Shown: positions 2,412 to 13,406 of the stretch, piece by piece
How the letters are laid out: every line of letters begins with the position of its first letter
How positions within the stretch are numbered: position 1 is the stretch's first letter
Assembly (NCBI GenBank): GCA_027053075.1
Contig: JALUEE010000048.1
Span: 1 to 14,793 of the forward strand
Source: a candidate division WOR-3 bacterium
Lineage (GTDB): Bacteria > Hydrothermota > Hydrothermia > B15-G9 > WFZT01
Reading direction: 5' to 3'
DNA: 14,793 bases
The notes under the pieces: model-generated
Seen by the model: only the letters and a program-made list of their open reading frames with translations
What the model was told of the DNA's origin: nothing
Databases searched by the model: none
Made by a program: the position numbers and the translations under genes

Positions 2412-2896
2412 GGGCTGTTGTGATATCTGATACCCATATACCTTCAAGGGCGAGGGATATTCCGAAGGTAATATGGGAAGATATCGAGTCCTCAGACTTA
2501 ATAATACATGCGGGAGATTTCACAACTGTTGATTTTTATGTACAACTAAAGAGTGTAAAACCTTTGAAAGCAGTCCATGGCAACATGGACGAAATTGATT
2601 TGTTTCATTTGTTAAAAGAGAAAGAAATTTTTGACCTGGAGGGGGTCAGGGTTGGTCTAACTCATGGGTTTGGTGCACCGTACGGTATTGAAAAACGCGT
2701 GATGAAAGTCTTTGAGGGGGAGAACGTTGATCTTATAATATTTGGCCACAGCCACATCCCGGTTTTTAAAAAAGTTGATGGTATTCACCTTTTAAATCCA
2801 GGAACTCCCACCGATACCATATATGCCCGACGCCAGAGCTATGCCATCCTCACCGTGACAGACAACACTTTCAACGTAGAGATCAAATATTTGTAA
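2408..2896 (+). CDS. Metallophosphoesterase, YfcE/MJ0936/Vps29 family
   Basis: Calcineurin-like motifs SDTH, HAGD, GNMD, THG, FGHSH and NPGT. Confidence 0.93.
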   Translation: MRAVVISDTHIPSRARDIPKVIWEDIESSDLIIHAGDFTTVDFYVQLKSVKPLKAVHGNMDEIDLFHLLKEKEIFDLEGVRVGLTHGFGAPYGIEKRVMKVFEGENVDLIIFGHSHIPVFKKVDGIHLLNPGTPTDTIYARRQSYAILTVTDNTFNVEIKYL

Positions 2897-2985
2897 ATCT
2901 TTCTCCTTTTAGGAAATGCGTGCGGGATGAACAAGTTTTTCAATTGCTATTTCCCTTAATAAAAGCTTGGTACGCAAGGCTACTG

Positions 2986-3014
2986 TTGATATTAACACCT
3001 CAACCATTTAAAAT
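2986..3014 (+). promoter_or_regulatory. Putative sigma70 promoter for the satD-like cassette
   Basis: TTGATA (2986-2991), 17 nt, TAAAAT (3009-3014) in the intergenic region. Confidence 0.65.
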
Positions 3015-3077
3015 TCATTAGCGGATGCGTGATAAGGATTTGGAAAATTGTACACGTGAAGTCAATGGAGGTTGACC

Positions 3078-3761
3078 TTGGTATTTGGAGCAATTTTAGC
3101 TGATGTCGTAAGGCATAGAAAATTAAAAGACTGGCCACAAAAGCAAGAACTTCTTATGACTATAAATGAAAAAGTTACGAACAGGTTTGAAAAATATTTG
3201 TTGTTCCCCATTGAGATGACAGCCGGGGATAGACTCATAATACTCCTTAAAAATCCCCGGGAAATAAACAATATTCTCCTGAGTTACGAAGAGGAACTTT
3301 TCTTGAAAAACGCAAAAATTAAACTTAGATGGGGCATAGGTACCGGAAATCTAAACTTGATGGAATCACCTCATACAACAACTGGTGAAGCTCTTTACAG
3401 AGCCCAATCAGCACTGGAAAATGCTCACAGAAACCGTAAATTCTTCGGCTTTTCGTCCGGTTATCAAGATACTGATCGCCTATTGGGAATTTTGAAGAAT
3501 ACGGCGTACAACATTAGAGAGAGGTGGACTTCAAGACAGCGTGAGTTGAGGAAAATCATTATCAATTTGAAAAATTCTGATCAAAAGATCTCTCAGACAA
3601 AACTTGCCTATCTCATGGGGATGACCCAGCCGGCAGTATCTAAAATGATGAAGTCCATGCTTTTCGAAGAGCAGGAACTTTTGGAGAATGAGATCAATCT
3701 GCAATTAAAATATATAACCTCTGAAGGTTATACTCTGCAATATAACCCTGGAGGGTTATGA
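3078..3761 (+). CDS. SatD-family protein (nucleotide-cyclase-like N-terminal domain plus C-terminal HTH)
   Basis: Motif order AILADVV, AGD, RWGIGTG, GEALYRA, WTSRQ, SQTKLAYLMGMTQPAVSK follows the SatD pattern as I recall it. Start moved to TTG 3078, 6 nt after GGAGG (3067-3071); TTG 3072 abuts the SD. Confidence 0.75.
   Translation: MVFGAILADVVRHRKLKDWPQKQELLMTINEKVTNRFEKYLLFPIEMTAGDRLIILLKNPREINNILLSYEEELFLKNAKIKLRWGIGTGNLNLMESPHTTTGEALYRAQSALENAHRNRKFFGFSSGYQDTDRLLGILKNTAYNIRERWTSRQRELRKIIINLKNSDQKISQTKLAYLMGMTQPAVSKMMKSMLFEEQELLENEINLQLKYITSEGYTLQYNPGGL
3713..3760. promoter_or_regulatory. Two tandem palindromic putative operators, TATAACC-N6-GGTTAT, 28-bp period
   Basis: TATAACCT-ctga-AGGTTATA (3713-3732) and ATAACCCT-gg-AGGGTTAT (3742-3759), each with perfect 8-bp arms. 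Confidence 0.7.
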
Positions 3762-3764
3762 TTT

Positions 3765-4289
3765 ATGCTTCTATTAGAAGTATCATTGGCTCTTTTAATT
3801 TACATAATCCTATTCGTCGATTTTCTGATTCCGCGAATTATCGCCAGTTTATCAGTCACCGTTACAAGAAAAATCCACGTTGAGGATTTCCCAAAAATAT
3901 TTATCGCTGATATGGATGGAATATGGTATGATCCTGTTGAAAAAACACTTTACATGACGGATAAGTTTACAAGAGAGAATTATGAACTACTTATGCAAAG
4001 AATCGGGGACAATGTAGAGCAACAGAAAGTAGTGAAAGAGCTTTTCAAAAGTAAATCAAGGGACACTGGAAAATTTATCGGCCTATTTGAGGCAATCCTA
4101 CTTTTAACTGTAGCAATTTTCACTGAAAAATTAGATATTGTTGGATGGTATCTTGCTGCGAAGTTCATTGCTCTCAATGCAAGGGATAAGGAAAACCAGC
4201 AATACTACATTTTAGGCACTATTTTAAATGTATCAATGATTGTATTATTCTTTTTACTTTTCAAATCGATATGGGAGTGGATATTTTAA
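3765..4289 (+). CDS. Membrane protein resembling the C-terminal region of SatE/DUF3307-type proteins
   Basis: One N-terminal TM helix, a soluble loop, then GKFIGLFEAILL, VGWYLAAKF and QYYILGTILN. These echo the G.IG.LER, IG.LIAAKS and EY.LIGTL.S pattern of proteins found next to satD. Confidence 0.65.
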   Translation: MLLLEVSLALLIYIILFVDFLIPRIIASLSVTVTRKIHVEDFPKIFIADMDGIWYDPVEKTLYMTDKFTRENYELLMQRIGDNVEQQKVVKELFKSKSRDTGKFIGLFEAILLLTVAIFTEKLDIVGWYLAAKFIALNARDKENQQYYILGTILNVSMIVLFFLLFKSIWEWIF

Positions 4290-4316
4290 GTTAACTTTTT
4301 AAAGTCTTCCCCAGCC

Positions 4317-4345
4317 TTGAAATATTACCCCGCTGATGGTATCTT
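4317..4345 (+). promoter_or_regulatory. Putative sigma70 promoter (leaderless) for the radical SAM gene
   Basis: TTGAAA (4317-4322), 17 nt, TATCTT (4340-4345) preceded by TGn, then 6 nt to ATG 4352. No SD. Confidence 0.65.
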
Positions 4346-4351
4346 TTCCCG

Positions 4352-6703
4352 ATGCAGCATCCCTTTGGAAATGATCTGATAAGACTCGAAAAACCTGCTC
4401 GTTACATTGGGCAGGAAAGGAATGCAGTCTATAAAGATAAATACAAACTCCGTTTTGCCCTCGTTTATCCCGAAATCTACGAGGTTGGCATGTCCAATCT
4501 CGGACTCAAAATCATCTACCACGTGCTAAACTCTATTCCCGAAGTCTATGCAGAACGCGTCTTCTTACCCTGGCTCGACGCGCTGGAACTCATGCAAAAG
4601 AAGCAAATTCCTTTATTTTCTCTCGAAACCTACACACCACTCAATAAATTTGATGTAATTGGATTCTCCATGCATACGGAGCTAAATTACACCAACCTCC
4701 TCCTCGCTCTGGATTTAGGAAAAATTTCATTTCGCCGCGAGGATAGAAAAAAGCCAATAATCGTGCTCGGAGGCCCCGCAGCACTGAATCCAGCACCACT
4801 CGAGGAATTTGTGGATGTTTTCTTCGTAGGAGAAGCTGAGTTATCAGTTAAAGAGGCCACTCCCCTACTCCTCAGCTGGAAAATCGGGGAAATCACAAGA
4901 GACGAGCTTTTTAAGGAACTTGCAAAAATTGAAGGAGTTTATGTTCCAGCAGTTAAAAACAAGACTAAAAAAGGAATAGCTCCACTATCCCGTGAGCTCT
5001 ATCCCGCACGACAGGTTGTTCCAAACATAGACATTGTCCACAACCGCCTGACTATCGAGATTATGCGTGGCTGCACACGGGGATGCAGATTCTGTGAGGG
5101 TGGGATGGTTTATCGCCCACTAAGGAAACGCGAGGTAGATGATGTTCTTTCTATTATCGAGGAAGGTGTTAAATACACGGGATGGGATGAGGTAGGACTC
5201 CTTGCATTTACAAGCTCCGACTACCCTGAGCTGGTTGAGCTCATCGTAAAAATTAAAGAAAAATTTGAAAATCAGGTGTTTGTCTCCCTTCCTTCTCTAC
5301 CTGTGGATGCTATTAACCTTGAACTCATCGAGACAGTTGAAGATATGCGCAGATTCGGGCTCACCCTCGCACCGGAGACCGCATCAGACAGGCTGAGGAA
5401 GGTTATAAACAAAAATGTGCCACTTGAAGACATTGAAAAATCTATCGAAATTGCGAAAAGATTTGGCTGGAGACACATTAAACTTTATTTCATGATAGGA
5501 CTGCCAACAGAGACTGAAGAGGACGTGAGGGAACTCGGCTACTTTCTTAAAAGAATCGCTCGACAGGCAAGAAGAATCAGTTTCAAAGCCTCCATCTCCC
5601 CGTTTGTTCCCCGCCCACACACTCCATTCCAATGGGTGAGACAGGAAACACCCGATGAAATCTTCGAGAAGATTAGAATCATTAAATCCATCACCCGAAG
5701 GGAAAGAAACCTGAGGGTTTCATTTCACAATCCTTACAATTCACTCCTCGAAGGCATTCTTAGCAGGGGTGACGGGAGCCTCTCTAAGGTCCTCTTGGAA
5801 GCCTACAAAAACGGTGCATTTTTAGAGAGCTGGTCCGAGCAGTTTGATTTCTCAAAATGGGAAAAGGCATTTGATAAACTCGGAATAGACTACAGGGAAT
5901 ATCTCCGAGAAAGGGAGCTCAACGAAAAACTTCCCTGGGACAATATCAACGTGATGATTTTTAAAAAATACATGCAGCTTGAATATCGCAGGGCAATGAA
6001 CGAGGAGTACACATCCAACTGCATGACTGAAGGGTGCACGGGATGCGGTCCATTCCTGAAAATGGGCTTCAAACTTTGCAAAGAGGGGCTGCCATCTATG
6101 AAAATTCCGGAAAAAATTGAGATTAGGAAACCCGGGACTGAAGTAATCTATCGCTACCTGATTTTCTTCTCAAAAACCGGAAACGCAAGATTTATAGCCC
6201 AGAATGACACAGTGCGGCTTATTCTCCAGGCCTTAAAAAGTGCAGGTGTGAAAATACGCTATCGGGGAGAATTTGTTCCACGACCGGCCATCAGCACCGG
6301 CCCATCATTGATTCTCGGAGCAGAATCAAAAAATGAGCCACTTTACATAGAAACCCATACCGAGATCACGGATGAGGTGCTAAAAAAGGCATCCAGATTT
6401 CTCATACCGGGTCTCGAGTTGAAGCATGTTGTGCCACTCAATAAAAAAGTTAACTGGCAGGACTTTAACCGTGTGCTTTACAGGATAAAACTTCCAAGAG
6501 AACTGGCAGTGGCACTAAGTAGGACCTCATCAAATGGCATAAAAGTCAAAGTTGATGGGAACGGAATCACAATTGAAGCCCCGGCATCCGGCTTCAGTGT
6601 GCTAAAATTTCTATCTGAAAAACTTGGAATTGACAGAGAAGAGGCTCGAAGTTTTCAGATTGAGCGTTTTTATGCAATAACTTATAATACCACCCATGAC
6701 TGA
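4352..6703 (+). CDS. B12-binding radical SAM protein (TIGR03960-like) fused to a DUF2344/TIGR03936-like C-terminal domain
   Basis: EKPARYIGQE, YEVGMSNLG, EIMRGCTRGCRFC (CxxxCxxC), LTLAPE, KLYFMIGLPTET, FVPRPHTPFQW, LPWD and C..GCTGCG. The C-terminal FSKTGNARFI...PRPAISTGPSL.LGAES..E is DUF2344-like. Confidence 0.9.
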   Translation: MQHPFGNDLIRLEKPARYIGQERNAVYKDKYKLRFALVYPEIYEVGMSNLGLKIIYHVLNSIPEVYAERVFLPWLDALELMQKKQIPLFSLETYTPLNKFDVIGFSMHTELNYTNLLLALDLGKISFRREDRKKPIIVLGGPAALNPAPLEEFVDVFFVGEAELSVKEATPLLLSWKIGEITRDELFKELAKIEGVYVPAVKNKTKKGIAPLSRELYPARQVVPNIDIVHNRLTIEIMRGCTRGCRFCEGGMVYRPLRKREVDDVLSIIEEGVKYTGWDEVGLLAFTSSDYPELVELIVKIKEKFENQVFVSLPSLPVDAINLELIETVEDMRRFGLTLAPETASDRLRKVINKNVPLEDIEKSIEIAKRFGWRHIKLYFMIGLPTETEEDVRELGYFLKRIARQARRISFKASISPFVPRPHTPFQWVRQETPDEIFEKIRIIKSITRRERNLRVSFHNPYNSLLEGILSRGDGSLSKVLLEAYKNGAFLESWSEQFDFSKWEKAFDKLGIDYREYLRERELNEKLPWDNINVMIFKKYMQLEYRRAMNEEYTSNCMTEGCTGCGPFLKMGFKLCKEGLPSMKIPEKIEIRKPGTEVIYRYLIFFSKTGNARFIAQNDTVRLILQALKSAGVKIRYRGEFVPRPAISTGPSLILGAESKNEPLYIETHTEITDEVLKKASRFLIPGLELKHVVPLNKKVNWQDFNRVLYRIKLPRELAVALSRTSSNGIKVKVDGNGITIEAPASGFSVLKFLSEKLGIDREEARSFQIERFYAITYNTTHD
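6660..6688 (+). promoter_or_regulatory. Putative internal sigma70 promoter (leaderless) for moxR
   Basis: TTGAGC (6660-6665), 17 nt, TATAAT (6683-6688), 7 nt, ATG 6696. It lies inside the 3' end of the upstream CDS. Confidence 0.6.
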
Positions 6704-10028: not shown

Positions 10029-12368
10029 TTAATCAGCAGATTCCCTGAACTTCCTCGGTGGGACAAGGCCGGGATAATAGTGGTCAAAGAGTAAGTTAAA
10101 AAGCTCGTGTGACCTGATAACAATGGTTTTGTAATTCCACCCACGCTCAGCAGCAATCTCCCCTAACTCCTTCAAATGTAGAAAGTTCTCAAGAATCAAA
10201 ACTTCATCCATCTCGGAGAGCTCGATGTCAAGGTTCAGGAAGTAAAGCTGAGCCAGTTTCCTTGCAATGTCCCTAACATACCCCCATGGTATTACCTCCC
10301 GCCTGAAAAGTTTCACTCGCTCTACCTCGTCATCACTTATATTCCGCCTCTCGGTTATCCTCGAAATCCTCTGTCTGATCAACCGCAAGAAAAGCTCCGT
10401 CTCCATGTCCCTGTAATTTGTGTCTTTAAGCTTGATTATCCTCCTCACAAGAAGAGTATTAAACCTCTCGATAAAATCGCTGACCTCGTGGTTGTGCGCT
10501 TTTACATAAGCCACACTGTATTCACCACTTACAGCGTTTCGAACTGGTGAAATATATACCGGGTAATAGCCATTGCGAAACCAGAAGTTTAAAAGCTCTG
10601 GAGTCGCACCAAAACTCGCGCCAAACCAGTCAAACCTGCCAGAGTAAAATTCCTCCATCTTTTTTAAAGAAGCTGACCCGATGCCTTGATTGAAAAAGGA
10701 AGGATGGGCAGCTATTCTGACAACCCTGAGTCCTTTAAAACAGGGGAAGCGTGCATCCTCGTAATACCTCGCCAGAACAGAAGGGATAACATGGCCATTA
10801 ATCTCCTGGTGAAGCTCTGGATTTTGTGTAAGTCCCTCACAGATTTCCTCCGGCAAATTACCCTCCTCAGCTAAAAGAAGCGAGGATGCAAGTTTTTGAT
10901 CTAATTTGAGTGAAGCGGCATGAATGTGTGGTGCATCGGCAAGAATTATTATATCATTAGGTTCATTCCTGTAATGAGCAAGAATGTAAATTCCTATGTA
11001 TTTCCTGAGAGTCTCTCTGTCCTCAAGAAAGAGCTTTACGCGGTCAAATTCGATAAATTCCTGCCTCTTGAAATTGAGCTCATCTATCCTCTCGGGCTCT
11101 GCATCAAGGAGAAGCACATCATATAGCCACTTTTCTATTGGATCGTTTGCGCTATACCTTATGGGCTCGTTTAATTCAAAAATCTGAACGTTAATCCCAT
11201 CCTCTTTTAGTTTTCTGAGAAACCTTATATTGAAACCTCTTCCAGCCCCCTCGTACCCGTGGATTGTGGTTGAAAAGATGGATTTTTCAGCAACATTAAG
11301 GAGTTTGTGGAGCATGGGGACAGGCAACCCGGAGGCCTCATCGACAACCACCATGTCCACATTTTGATAAACCATGTCCATCGGGGTATGGTAAACCATT
11401 TCAAACTTCTTTCTCTTCAAAACTTTACCATCAAATTTTGGTGGTTCACCAAGAGTGGTCATGGCAAGTTTGGCAAATTCGAAAATGGTTTTCGCGCCCT
11501 CAAAGGATGGTGCCGTTACTCCCACTCTGAAACGGCCAAAATTCAGGTGATGCGCAAGCGCCCCTAAAAATAACCCCACCACTGCAGATTTCCCGCGTCC
11601 CCTGTTTGCTGTTACCACAAAGGTTCCATCTCCAGAAAAGTAGTACTTCTCCAATTTTTCAAGAACATCCACCTGATCCTGAGTAGCACAGAGCCTGTAA
11701 ATTCTTTTATCAAAGGTCATTCTTTCCGGAATGGTTATTTTCTGCCTTTCTTGGCTTTTTCCCTTTACTCTATTGGCAATTGCCTCAGTCTCGCTCACAA
11801 AATAGATGCCGGGAGACGTTTTCAGGGAATGCAGAAAGTATCTCTCAAAAGTTCTTTTAGTATCCCGCTCTGTATAAGGGTATGAAGCCAGCTCAAAATG
11901 CTGCTTCATGGTCTTCTCAAGCCATGAAGCAGGGGAATCTAAAAGAATAAAAATGATCCCACCACCCCTTACGGTATCAACAAGTATGCCGAGGTCATTG
12001 GGGAAGAGCGAGAACGTGAGATCAATCACAGCAGCATCAAAGGTCTCACCAAGCACAGTCCTTGAGCGTCCAATGGGGATGGTTTTGATGTAAATCTTTC
12101 GAGGTCTGTGCCGCTTAATTACCCGCATAAATCTCCAGTATGAACTTTCCCTATCCTCGTAGGCGTAAAGAACGCGCTTTTTCCCCTCAACTATACTATG
12201 AAACGCGAGAATAAGATATGCCGAGTAAGCAAACTTTTTGTGGGTATCCACTGCCAGTGTGATTATCCGTCTGTGCCTACTTGCGTTTGCGTCATAAACT
12301 GCTTCAAAGAGAAACTTTCCAAGCAGCTGCCTAAGGTTTTCGGGTAATTTTGAAAGGTACTTCTGCAT
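10029..12368 (-). CDS. tmcA: RNA cytidine N4-acetyltransferase TmcA/Nat10 family (DUF1726, helicase and GNAT domains)
   Basis: PNDLG...TVRGGG, ATQDQ, TANRGRGKSA (Walker A), VTAPS, VVDEASG, FSTTIHGYEGAGRGF, EPIRYSANDPIEKWL, AHYRNEPND, RVVRIAAHP, GASFG, FWFRNGY. Confidence 0.95.
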   Translation of the reverse strand: MQKYLSKLPENLRQLLGKFLFEAVYDANASRHRRIITLAVDTHKKFAYSAYLILAFHSIVEGKKRVLYAYEDRESSYWRFMRVIKRHRPRKIYIKTIPIGRSRTVLGETFDAAVIDLTFSLFPNDLGILVDTVRGGGIIFILLDSPASWLEKTMKQHFELASYPYTERDTKRTFERYFLHSLKTSPGIYFVSETEAIANRVKGKSQERQKITIPERMTFDKRIYRLCATQDQVDVLEKLEKYYFSGDGTFVVTANRGRGKSAVVGLFLGALAHHLNFGRFRVGVTAPSFEGAKTIFEFAKLAMTTLGEPPKFDGKVLKRKKFEMVYHTPMDMVYQNVDMVVVDEASGLPVPMLHKLLNVAEKSIFSTTIHGYEGAGRGFNIRFLRKLKEDGINVQIFELNEPIRYSANDPIEKWLYDVLLLDAEPERIDELNFKRQEFIEFDRVKLFLEDRETLRKYIGIYILAHYRNEPNDIIILADAPHIHAASLKLDQKLASSLLLAEEGNLPEEICEGLTQNPELHQEINGHVIPSVLARYYEDARFPCFKGLRVVRIAAHPSFFNQGIGSASLKKMEEFYSGRFDWFGASFGATPELLNFWFRNGYYPVYISPVRNAVSGEYSVAYVKAHNHEVSDFIERFNTLLVRRIIKLKDTNYRDMETELFLRLIRQRISRITERRNISDDEVERVKLFRREVIPWGYVRDIARKLAQLYFLNLDIELSEMDEVLILENFLHLKELGEIAAERGWNYKTIVIRSHELFNLLFDHYYPGLVPPRKFRESAD

Positions 12369-12384: not shown

Positions 12385-12759
12385 ATGGTCCCCGAACTGA
12401 AAACAGGCCTTGTGGTCAAATCCAGATTTGCAAAGCTCATTGTAGAGGGTGAGAAGTCATGGGAAATACGAAAAATTCCACCGTATGTCACGGGGATTGT
12501 TGGTGTAATAGATGGGGATAATGACCTCTTACTCGGGACCGTGGAAATTTCAGGATTTCTTGGACCTTTCTCACTGAAGGAAATCCTCAAATACGAAGAC
12601 AAACACCACGGAGGCAAGTTCTTGAAGAATTATGCGCGAGGGGGCATAAAGCTCTTTGCCTGGCAGCTCAGAAATCCTATCAAATTCTCAAAACCTCTCA
12701 AGGTCAAATACAAAGAGGGCAAAGCAGGCATCGCCGAAATTCTGGATGTTGAGGTGTGA
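12385..12759 (+). CDS. ASCH-domain (PUA-like) protein
   Basis: GLVVKSRFAKLIVEGEKSWEIR (GxKxxExR), LLGTVEI, FAWQLRNPIKFSKPL. Confidence 0.9.
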   Translation: MVPELKTGLVVKSRFAKLIVEGEKSWEIRKIPPYVTGIVGVIDGDNDLLLGTVEISGFLGPFSLKEILKYEDKHHGGKFLKNYARGGIKLFAWQLRNPIKFSKPLKVKYKEGKAGIAEILDVEV

Positions 12760-12929
12760 ATGGGGAAACCGCCGGAGGGTAATATTTATTTTGGAAAACA
12801 TCGGGCCTTTCTTGCCTCGTAGATTCTGGCTGTGGGGCTGTTAAATAACGCATTTCCCCACGTTTTGTGAGTGATAAGGCCTTTTGCTTGAACTTTGATA
12901 AATTTAATTTGAAAAAATTTAAGAAGTAG

Positions 12930-13406
12930 CCCCTCACCTTTATCCTCTCCCCGCAAATTATTTATGCGGGGAGAGGAAATTTTGTTTTCGAGTGGAACTG
13001 CAGAAACTGCATCAAATATGTTACTCAAAGACCTTTTCAGACTTTTACATAGAAGAAATTTTAGTTGCAACTCTATCCCCTTTCCGCAATCTCAAAATGC
13101 TTCCTTCCCCCGCTTGCAAAGCAAGCGGGGGAAGGATAAAGGGAGGGCATTCCGCTTGAAAAATTCAAGATGTGGCCTTTCAACGGACAACTTCAAAAAA
13201 CTCCCTCCCCCCACGCTCTGCGTGGGGGAGGGATAAAGGGAGGGGGTATTCCGCTTGAAATCTTTAAAAAATTTAAGTTGAAGGCCCTCACCCCATCCCT
13301 CTCCCACTTCGTGGGAGAGGGAGATTGGTGAATTTTTGATTAGAAATTTTTAGATGTGACACCTCACTTGACCTCTCCCCGCAAGTATTGGCGTGGGAAG
13401 AGGGAG
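12930..13406. repeat. Cluster of five BoxC/REP-like hairpins with purine/pyrimidine tails
   Basis: Stems at 12943-12977 (13 bp), 13102-13136 (16 bp, AAA loop), 13202-13233 (one bulge, TCT loop), 13296-13322 (12 bp, TTC loop) and a degenerate copy at about 13362-13406. Consensus CCCTCACC-N-CCTCTCCC...GGGAGAGG in both orientations. Confidence 0.85.

Follow-up and report, generated by a model that had tools for sequence, protein, structure and literature searches.

The window analysed here, a stretch of 14,793 nucleotides from a candidate division WOR-3 bacterium, contains on its forward strand a satD-family gene (3078–3761, 227 aa), which most likely starts at a TTG codon at 3078 behind a Shine-Dalgarno sequence (SD) at 3067–3071. 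It is followed by a gene for a membrane protein (3765–4289, forward strand, 174 aa, ATG at 3765). Two tandem palindromes, TATAACCTCTGAAGGTTATA (3713–3732) and TATAACCCTGGAGGGTTATG (3741–3760), occupy the junction of these two genes.

SatD takes its name from the sat (secretion and acid tolerance) operon of Streptococcus mutans. The protein encoded here matches PF16264 [3.6e-17; 63.2 bits against a curated cut-off of 29]; NCBIfam profiles gave nothing above cut-off, and PADLOC defence profiles matched its helix-turn-helix (HTH) region only [PDC-S05, 5.7e-5]. In the AF2 model (pLDDT 92.5) residues 1 to about 150 are predicted to form a cyclase/GGDEF-like palm, followed by a C-terminal HTH (residues 172–192; 3591–3653, forward strand) which is also recognized by weak HTH profile matches, with residues 181–191 as the predicted recognition helix. 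Structure matches of the predicted palm to class III cyclases and GGDEF proteins have Z scores of 10–11.8 (rmsd 2.3–3.0 Å over 112–135 residues, the best match having a Z of 11.8). Two metal-binding aspartates on the palm fold mark class III cyclase and GGDEF enzymes; like the class III cyclase, GGDEF and Cas10 palms, the domain here has two aspartates (D9 and D51), both invariant in 149/149 SatD sequences. The window's copy has a histidine in place of a near-invariant serine and has an arginine after the second aspartate; since substitutions adjoin both aspartates, a catalytic role for this copy is doubtful.

Unlike these cyclases, SatD is predicted to dimerize through helices 131–149 and 193–208, which lie beside the HTH. 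The homodimer model supports the dimer that was originally proposed, scoring 0.64 against 0.00 for the best of three controls, with contact agreement of at least 94% and pLDDT of at least 90; among proteins of solved structure, 20 of 30 pairs and 1 of 23 single chains attain the same mark.

The membrane protein has no Pfam match (E up to 10), none to DUF3307 [PF11750] among them, nor does it match the PADLOC defence profiles, and a search of the ESM Atlas gave unnamed clusters only, all under 0.9. It does match a profile of the partner genes at other satD loci [1.8e-16], built with the four orthologues left out, and appears to be a divergent member of the satD-partner family possessing the C-terminal core of DUF3307-type proteins. 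The window's pair thus resembles the sat-type pair in protein family, in gene order and in this core, but its partner lacks the N-terminal His-cluster region (PF11750) and carries a soluble insert. The insert (3860–4040) spans about 60 residues between the first helix and the conserved core, has no family match and was found only in the window's genome (G000) and in G004, G006 and G008 among the loci examined. The gene is the sole copy in its genome. An out-of-frame ATG (3758–3760), three bases past the SD at the gene junction, overlaps the satD stop codon (ATGA); it is absent in G004 and therefore probably incidental.

The two genes are an accessory unit. Their G+C content (satD 38.5%, membrane gene 33.7%) is below the 43–46% of the neighbouring genes; G001 and G003 have other genes at this place, after the phosphoesterase gene, and in G006 and G008 the pair sits coupled to serS. 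G005, G001 and G004 (loci L005, L007 and L010) have a second, distant pair of satD and a short partner gene, with GTAAACC-type junction sites, directly before cas1. That of G004 lies between cas4 and cas1; the array of such a pair could also gate the downstream adaptation genes. One satD in G018 (L008, 2112–2687) has no array, and the gene behind it encodes a different membrane protein in place of the usual partner.

Elsewhere in the window a gene for a TmcA/NAT10-type cytidine acetyltransferase (10029–12368, reverse strand, 779 aa) lies head to head, across a 16-bp gap, with a small ASCH-domain gene (12385–12759, forward strand; weak Pfam match). ASCH proteins that remove acetyl groups from ac4C exist, and these two genes may be a writer and an eraser. 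The intergenic region at 12800–13300 contains repeated CCCTCTCCC-like elements, which suggests REP-like repeats, and several short overlapping ORFs.

The tandem palindromes at the gene junction

Site 1 (TATAACC-N6-GGTTATA) lies within the 3' end of satD; site 2 (TATAACC-N6-GGTTATG), 28 bp past it, contains the SD GGAGG (3750–3754) and overlaps the satD stop codon TGA (3759–3761). Together they make up four 7-bp half-sites of alternating orientation with a 14-bp period (7-6-7-8-7-6-7; 3713–3760): TATAACC, 6 bp, GGTTATA, 8 bp, TATAACC, 6 bp, GGTTATG, the period of the whole sites being 28 bp. Both palindromes, the SD, the stop codon and the promoter-like hexamers have the positions and sequences given in the original prediction.

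The pair is clearly beyond chance. Allowing up to one mismatch, the window has two occurrences of ATAACC-N6-GGTTAT where shuffles average 0.03, and none of 200 shuffled windows gives two matches. In the genome-wide scan that had been proposed, the exact motif was found at two positions in 2,444,650 bases, both at the satD/membrane-gene junction. A tandem-palindrome score permitting any spacer and any period was best at this pair (26/28, period 28), a value attained by none of 60 simulated windows (best 25). With a matrix built from the sites of other genomes, site 1 (25.3 bits) and site 2 (23.1 bits) rank first and second in the genome and the next unrelated site has 13.9 bits; as the matrix derives from loci picked with the same motif, only the gap to that next site is informative. 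The want of any other strong site implies that there is no wider regulon in this genome.

A loose pair on contig C32 (8769 and 8808, 39 bp apart; 12.7 and 11.3 bits) was rejected as being out of phase. A palindrome over the satD SD (GTCAA-N6-TTGAC, 3061–3076) was likewise rejected as an operator, its spacing being different and G004 lacking it. On contig C17 (36207–36250) tandem palindromes of the form TGTAAC-N5-GTTACA with a 27-bp period, unrelated to satD, are likely the operator of another regulator.

Both sites, 28 bp apart, are retained in G004, G006 and G008. Between the window's genome and G008, 25 of 28 arm bases are identical, compared with 9 of 20 bases in the spacers and linker and 34% of satD third codon positions. 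The reading frame also differs: in the window's genome and G004 both sites encode the satD tail, while in G006 and G008 the satD stop codon and the partner's start codon fall within site 1, and site 2 is part of the early coding sequence of the membrane gene. Arms kept despite saturated third positions and a differing frame point to selection on the DNA itself, the SatD tail (residues 211–227; 3708–3758, forward strand) probably being an accidental read-through of operator DNA. The suggestion that the tail is a by-product of the motif thereby gains support, also from the low pLDDT (under 50, AF2) of residues 217–227, from the closest homologues (P0002 and P0003, 214–215 aa), which end without a tail, and from the variable stop position: of 43 junction loci, 18 have the satD stop ahead of site 1, 14 inside site 1 and 11 farther on. 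The covariation of the inner base, which had been taken as preserving symmetry, is not kept in relatives, where the 6-bp spacer varies freely.

Site 1 overlaps a possible weak internal promoter (TTAAAA-18-TATACT; 3705–3734, forward strand, boxes at 3705–3710 and 3729–3734). Of the earlier proposal of a promoter here, the match itself and its register stand; it is weak (9/12 to consensus), alone it is not above chance (9 such matches in 2850–4400 against 5.1 ± 2.5 in shuffles), and it is poorly kept in G006 and G008, which have CTGAAA-18-TATGAG at this position. The right half-site accounts in part for its -10 box. The register, with the box at -8 and an 18-nt spacing, is shared with TTG boxes of the family: 6 of 19 arrays at junctions and 10 of 21 upstream have a TTG at -8/-7 relative to a site, other offsets being rare. 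A candidate promoter for satD itself (TTGATA-17-TAAAAT; 2986–3014, forward strand; 10/12 to consensus) has no operator nearby; the best operator-like match upstream of satD (9/14) equals the in-gene background.

Arrays and predicted recognition helices across bacteria

We searched for such arrays by two routes, by motif and by protein. With the tandem motif as sole query, a scan of GTDB genomes, one per species for 185,579 species, gave 59 loci, 52 of which have a SatD-family gene within 1.5 kb; their SatD proteins are 14–26% identical to that of the window. The array is upstream in 30 of these, at the satD/partner junction in 21 (one a remnant) and beside a frameshifted gene in one. At one further locus the partner gene lies directly behind the array.

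The remaining 6 of the 59 are orphan arrays (L065, L067, L070, L083, L095 and L099; array at 1501, in L083 at 88) with neither cassette gene within 1.5 kb. They sit just after unrelated genes (restriction S subunit, purM and others). Two of the six genomes have SatD elsewhere, and four, which are possibly incomplete, have no clear SatD. Orphan arrays could be what remains of lost cassettes, or sites that are read in trans. An exact tandem operator with a 29-bp period is also present on a 70-kb viral contig from IMG/VR (L227, 1501–1547), between two tRNA-like sequences near the contig end and with neither satD nor partner in the fetched DNA; this single case is possibly a decoy or a captured site.

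The protein-picked set comprises 99 loci from four phyla, six partial matches and four centre loci reached through the motif having been left out. A motif-free score peaks in this set at periods 28 (26 loci) and 29 (36 loci) with a spacer of 6, any other period from 20 to 40 accounting for at most two of the 99, and in mid-gene control windows it never rose above 18/28. Comparable tandem palindromes near satD homologues, as the original prediction would expect, are present at many of these loci. After de-duplication at 55% identity, 64 protein-picked loci remain: 25 with an upstream array, 15 with a junction array, 4 with both and 20 with none above threshold. Arrays hold two to six phased sites. 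In the window's own phylum 8 of 12 loci are junction-only, and the window's locus has phased palindromes (26/28, period 28) beside satD together with the partner core. In a tree built from the palm domain, loci with upstream arrays and loci with junction arrays are intermixed, so that array placement has likely changed more than once; many forks of this tree stay open, and the window's entry sits on a long branch.

The half-site itself differs between lineages, the classes including TATAACC, GTAAAGC, GA(A/T)ACAA, TTCACCC and TATCGGC among others. A nine-residue frame was slid along SatD and its pairwise identity compared with half-site identity, overall identity being removed; nine of the 59 motif loci, which have no full satD, were left out. 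The stretch which best predicts the half-site is residues 181–191, the predicted recognition helix, with a partial r of 0.60 in 54 de-duplicated loci and of 0.51 in the 35 picked by protein only. In the latter, frames before the HTH average -0.01 (sd 0.10, maximum 0.27).

The window's helix appears to be of the type that goes with TATAACC, in which Gln opens the first helix, followed by Ser/Thr-Gln-Pro/Ala-Ala/Gly. This signature is found in 19 of 19 de-duplicated motif-picked loci and in 5 of 63 protein-picked loci; the permutation p of 0.0005 overstates the case, since the signature was defined after the table had been seen and related loci are not independent. We regard the covariation of helix and half-site as strong circumstantial evidence that SatD reads these sites. 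Together with the confinement of the sites to the satD locus it argues, on sequence grounds, that they are operators of the adjacent SatD, as had been predicted.

Proposed regulation and possible role of the membrane protein

We consider that the palindromes are probably operators at which a SatD dimer represses the downstream membrane-protein gene only, satD itself being unregulated. Two dimers would bind side by side with the 28-bp period, and bound SatD would block the weak internal promoter overlapping site 1 or, alternatively, act as a roadblock to transcription that continues past satD from its promoter. The binding may be tuned by a nucleotide which the palm domain binds or makes. An operator covering the spacer between the -35 and -10 boxes is the usual geometry of a repressor, and upstream arrays in the family often take up the space between a TTGACA and a TATAAT box. 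Operators over the regulator's own promoter are thus present in other family members and not at the window's satD. At many junction-only loci satD lies within 60 bp behind a host gene. Given this proximity, a plain candidate promoter and no upstream site, satD is likely made without feedback and the partner alone is gated. Counted against the operator reading are the 20 of 64 protein-picked loci lacking an array and the 6 of 59 motif loci that are orphans.

SatD might also bind these sites without simple repression, either by activating the weak internal promoter or by using the array as a scaffold or titration site. In its favour are the weakness of the promoter under site 1, the HTH of one SatD-family member, which weakly matches sigma-70 region-4-like profiles, and the orphan arrays away from the two genes. 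We think this unlikely, because arrays placed upstream lie over the -35/-10 spacer of promoters close to consensus. Also, satD of S. pyogenes is an essential accessory gene in the available portions of one report (PMC11323703), which fits the loss of a brake better than that of an activator.

A quite improbable alternative is that the palindromes work chiefly as hairpins in the mRNA, with site 2 hiding the SD and ending or pausing transcription until ribosomes finishing satD open it. Folding prediction does give both hairpins (-22.7 kcal/mol, z -2.09; 7 of 200 shuffled sequences fold as well), and site 2 holds the SD and is the only terminator-like call in 2850–4400, where 0.9 would be expected. 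However, mismatches in junction arrays are G-U in 21 cases and A-C in 19, with no excess of the pair-preserving kind, and the arm sequence itself, not pairing alone, is conserved and tracks an HTH. The fold is predicted to differ in G004 and G008, and in G006 and G008 stop and start both lie inside site 1. At 18 of 43 junction loci satD ends ahead of site 1, and ribosomes would there not reach the hairpins at all. The predicted SD-hiding hairpin opened by satD translation thus finds no backing as a selected function in the mismatch counts or in the stop codon, whose register varies; a hairpin as a side effect in the window's genome is possible. In upstream arrays the mismatches number 34 G-U and 15 A-C; these arrays, lying between -35 and -10, are not transcribed there.

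It is very improbable that the palindromes are functionless remnants of a leader duplication, or that some host regulator unrelated to SatD uses them. At 4 of the 64 loci the same two-site leader precedes both genes, so that a junction copy may stem from duplication, and orphan arrays persist without genes, but the arms are conserved against saturated synonymous divergence, and an unrelated regulator would have no regulon elsewhere in the genome. In integrons an attC site follows each cassette gene, with gaps of 5 and 6 bp between its core boxes. That the four alternating half-sites form an attC-, dif- or lox-like recombination site mobilizing the gene pair, to which the inverted AAC/GTT core pairs at a gene end and the accessory distribution of the pair (absent after the phosphoesterase gene in G001 and G003, beside serS in G006 and G008) lend some colour, is hardly credible, since the AAC-GTT gaps here are 8 bp, no array lies behind the partner gene in 124 of 125 loci (one scores at least 20), junction-only and upstream-only arrays never flank the cassette on both sides, arrays contain two to six phased sites, the half-site changes with the SatD helix, and no recombinase was recognized among the window's ORFs (six proteins profile-scanned).

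Among known systems the closest parallel in form is hipBA of E. coli, where, in the available text of PMC3376134, four cooperative 18-bp operators (TATCC-N8-GGATA) are bound by the HTH protein HipB. The likeness lies in several palindromes, an HTH protein and a two-gene unit, and the starts of O1 and O2, counted from the sequence as printed there, are 28 bp apart, which is the window's period. SatD has a cyclase-like domain; hipBA encodes a small Xre protein (HipB) and a kinase (HipA). The half-sites differ, and the hipBA operators precede both genes whereas those of the window lie between the genes and spare the regulator. By analogy, the satD array would appear to work like the hipBA array without being a member of that system. 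In the literature covered, which included few subscription papers, we found no DNA binding, operator or cyclase fold for SatD and no description of satD operator arrays.

The products recall Panoptes, in which mCpol activity suppresses the toxicity of a 2TM-beta membrane effector, as far as the available part of PMC12657230 goes. In both a Cas10/cyclase-like palm protein is encoded beside a membrane protein; SatD differs in its HTH and operators, and its partner is a multi-helix DUF3307-type protein. Profiles of mCpol and of the 2TM-beta effector gave no match to the window's pair (mCpol Pfam, E up to 0.1), and mCpol is absent among the SatD structure matches listed, the palm fold alone being common to both.

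One might speculate, although we find it doubtful, that SatD and its partner constitute an undescribed guard system in which a constitutively made cyclase-fold repressor, bound to the operators between both genes, silences a toxic membrane protein. Loss of SatD or of the nucleotide bound or produced by its palm, for example during phage infection, would then release the toxin. Three observations count for a toxic partner. In the accessible sections of PMC11323703, satD of S. pyogenes is essential in all tested transposon sets though found in about 71% of genomes, and no other accessory gene of that species is reported to be essential. Of 30 partner loci fetched from the window's phylum, 27 are directly preceded by satD or part of it, and two more stop at a contig edge. 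Finally, the partner in G032, a 94% complete genome in which the search gave no SatD, has a lysine at its invariant glutamate and an early stop. Against toxicity count G257 (91% complete), in which only a 3' fragment of satD precedes an apparently intact partner, L066, where an incomplete genome shows an array and a partner gene but no clear satD, and the defence profiles, which give nothing specific. If the guard reading is true, the system would run a Panoptes-like logic through transcription, it would explain how satD can be essential yet accessory in S. pyogenes, and the pairs of helix and half-site would be a natural set of orthogonal repressors and operators.

Phased palindromes read by an HTH dimer are a known regulatory form. 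Judged from sequence, the site pair described here is real and conserved, and probably the operator pair of an uncharacterised regulator family. The junction layout, which would put the regulator outside its own control, points to the partner as the thing that has to be kept off. SatD has so far carried an acid-tolerance label without a mechanism; this locus offers it a putative cognate site and a hypothesis, at the level of residues, of how that site may be read.
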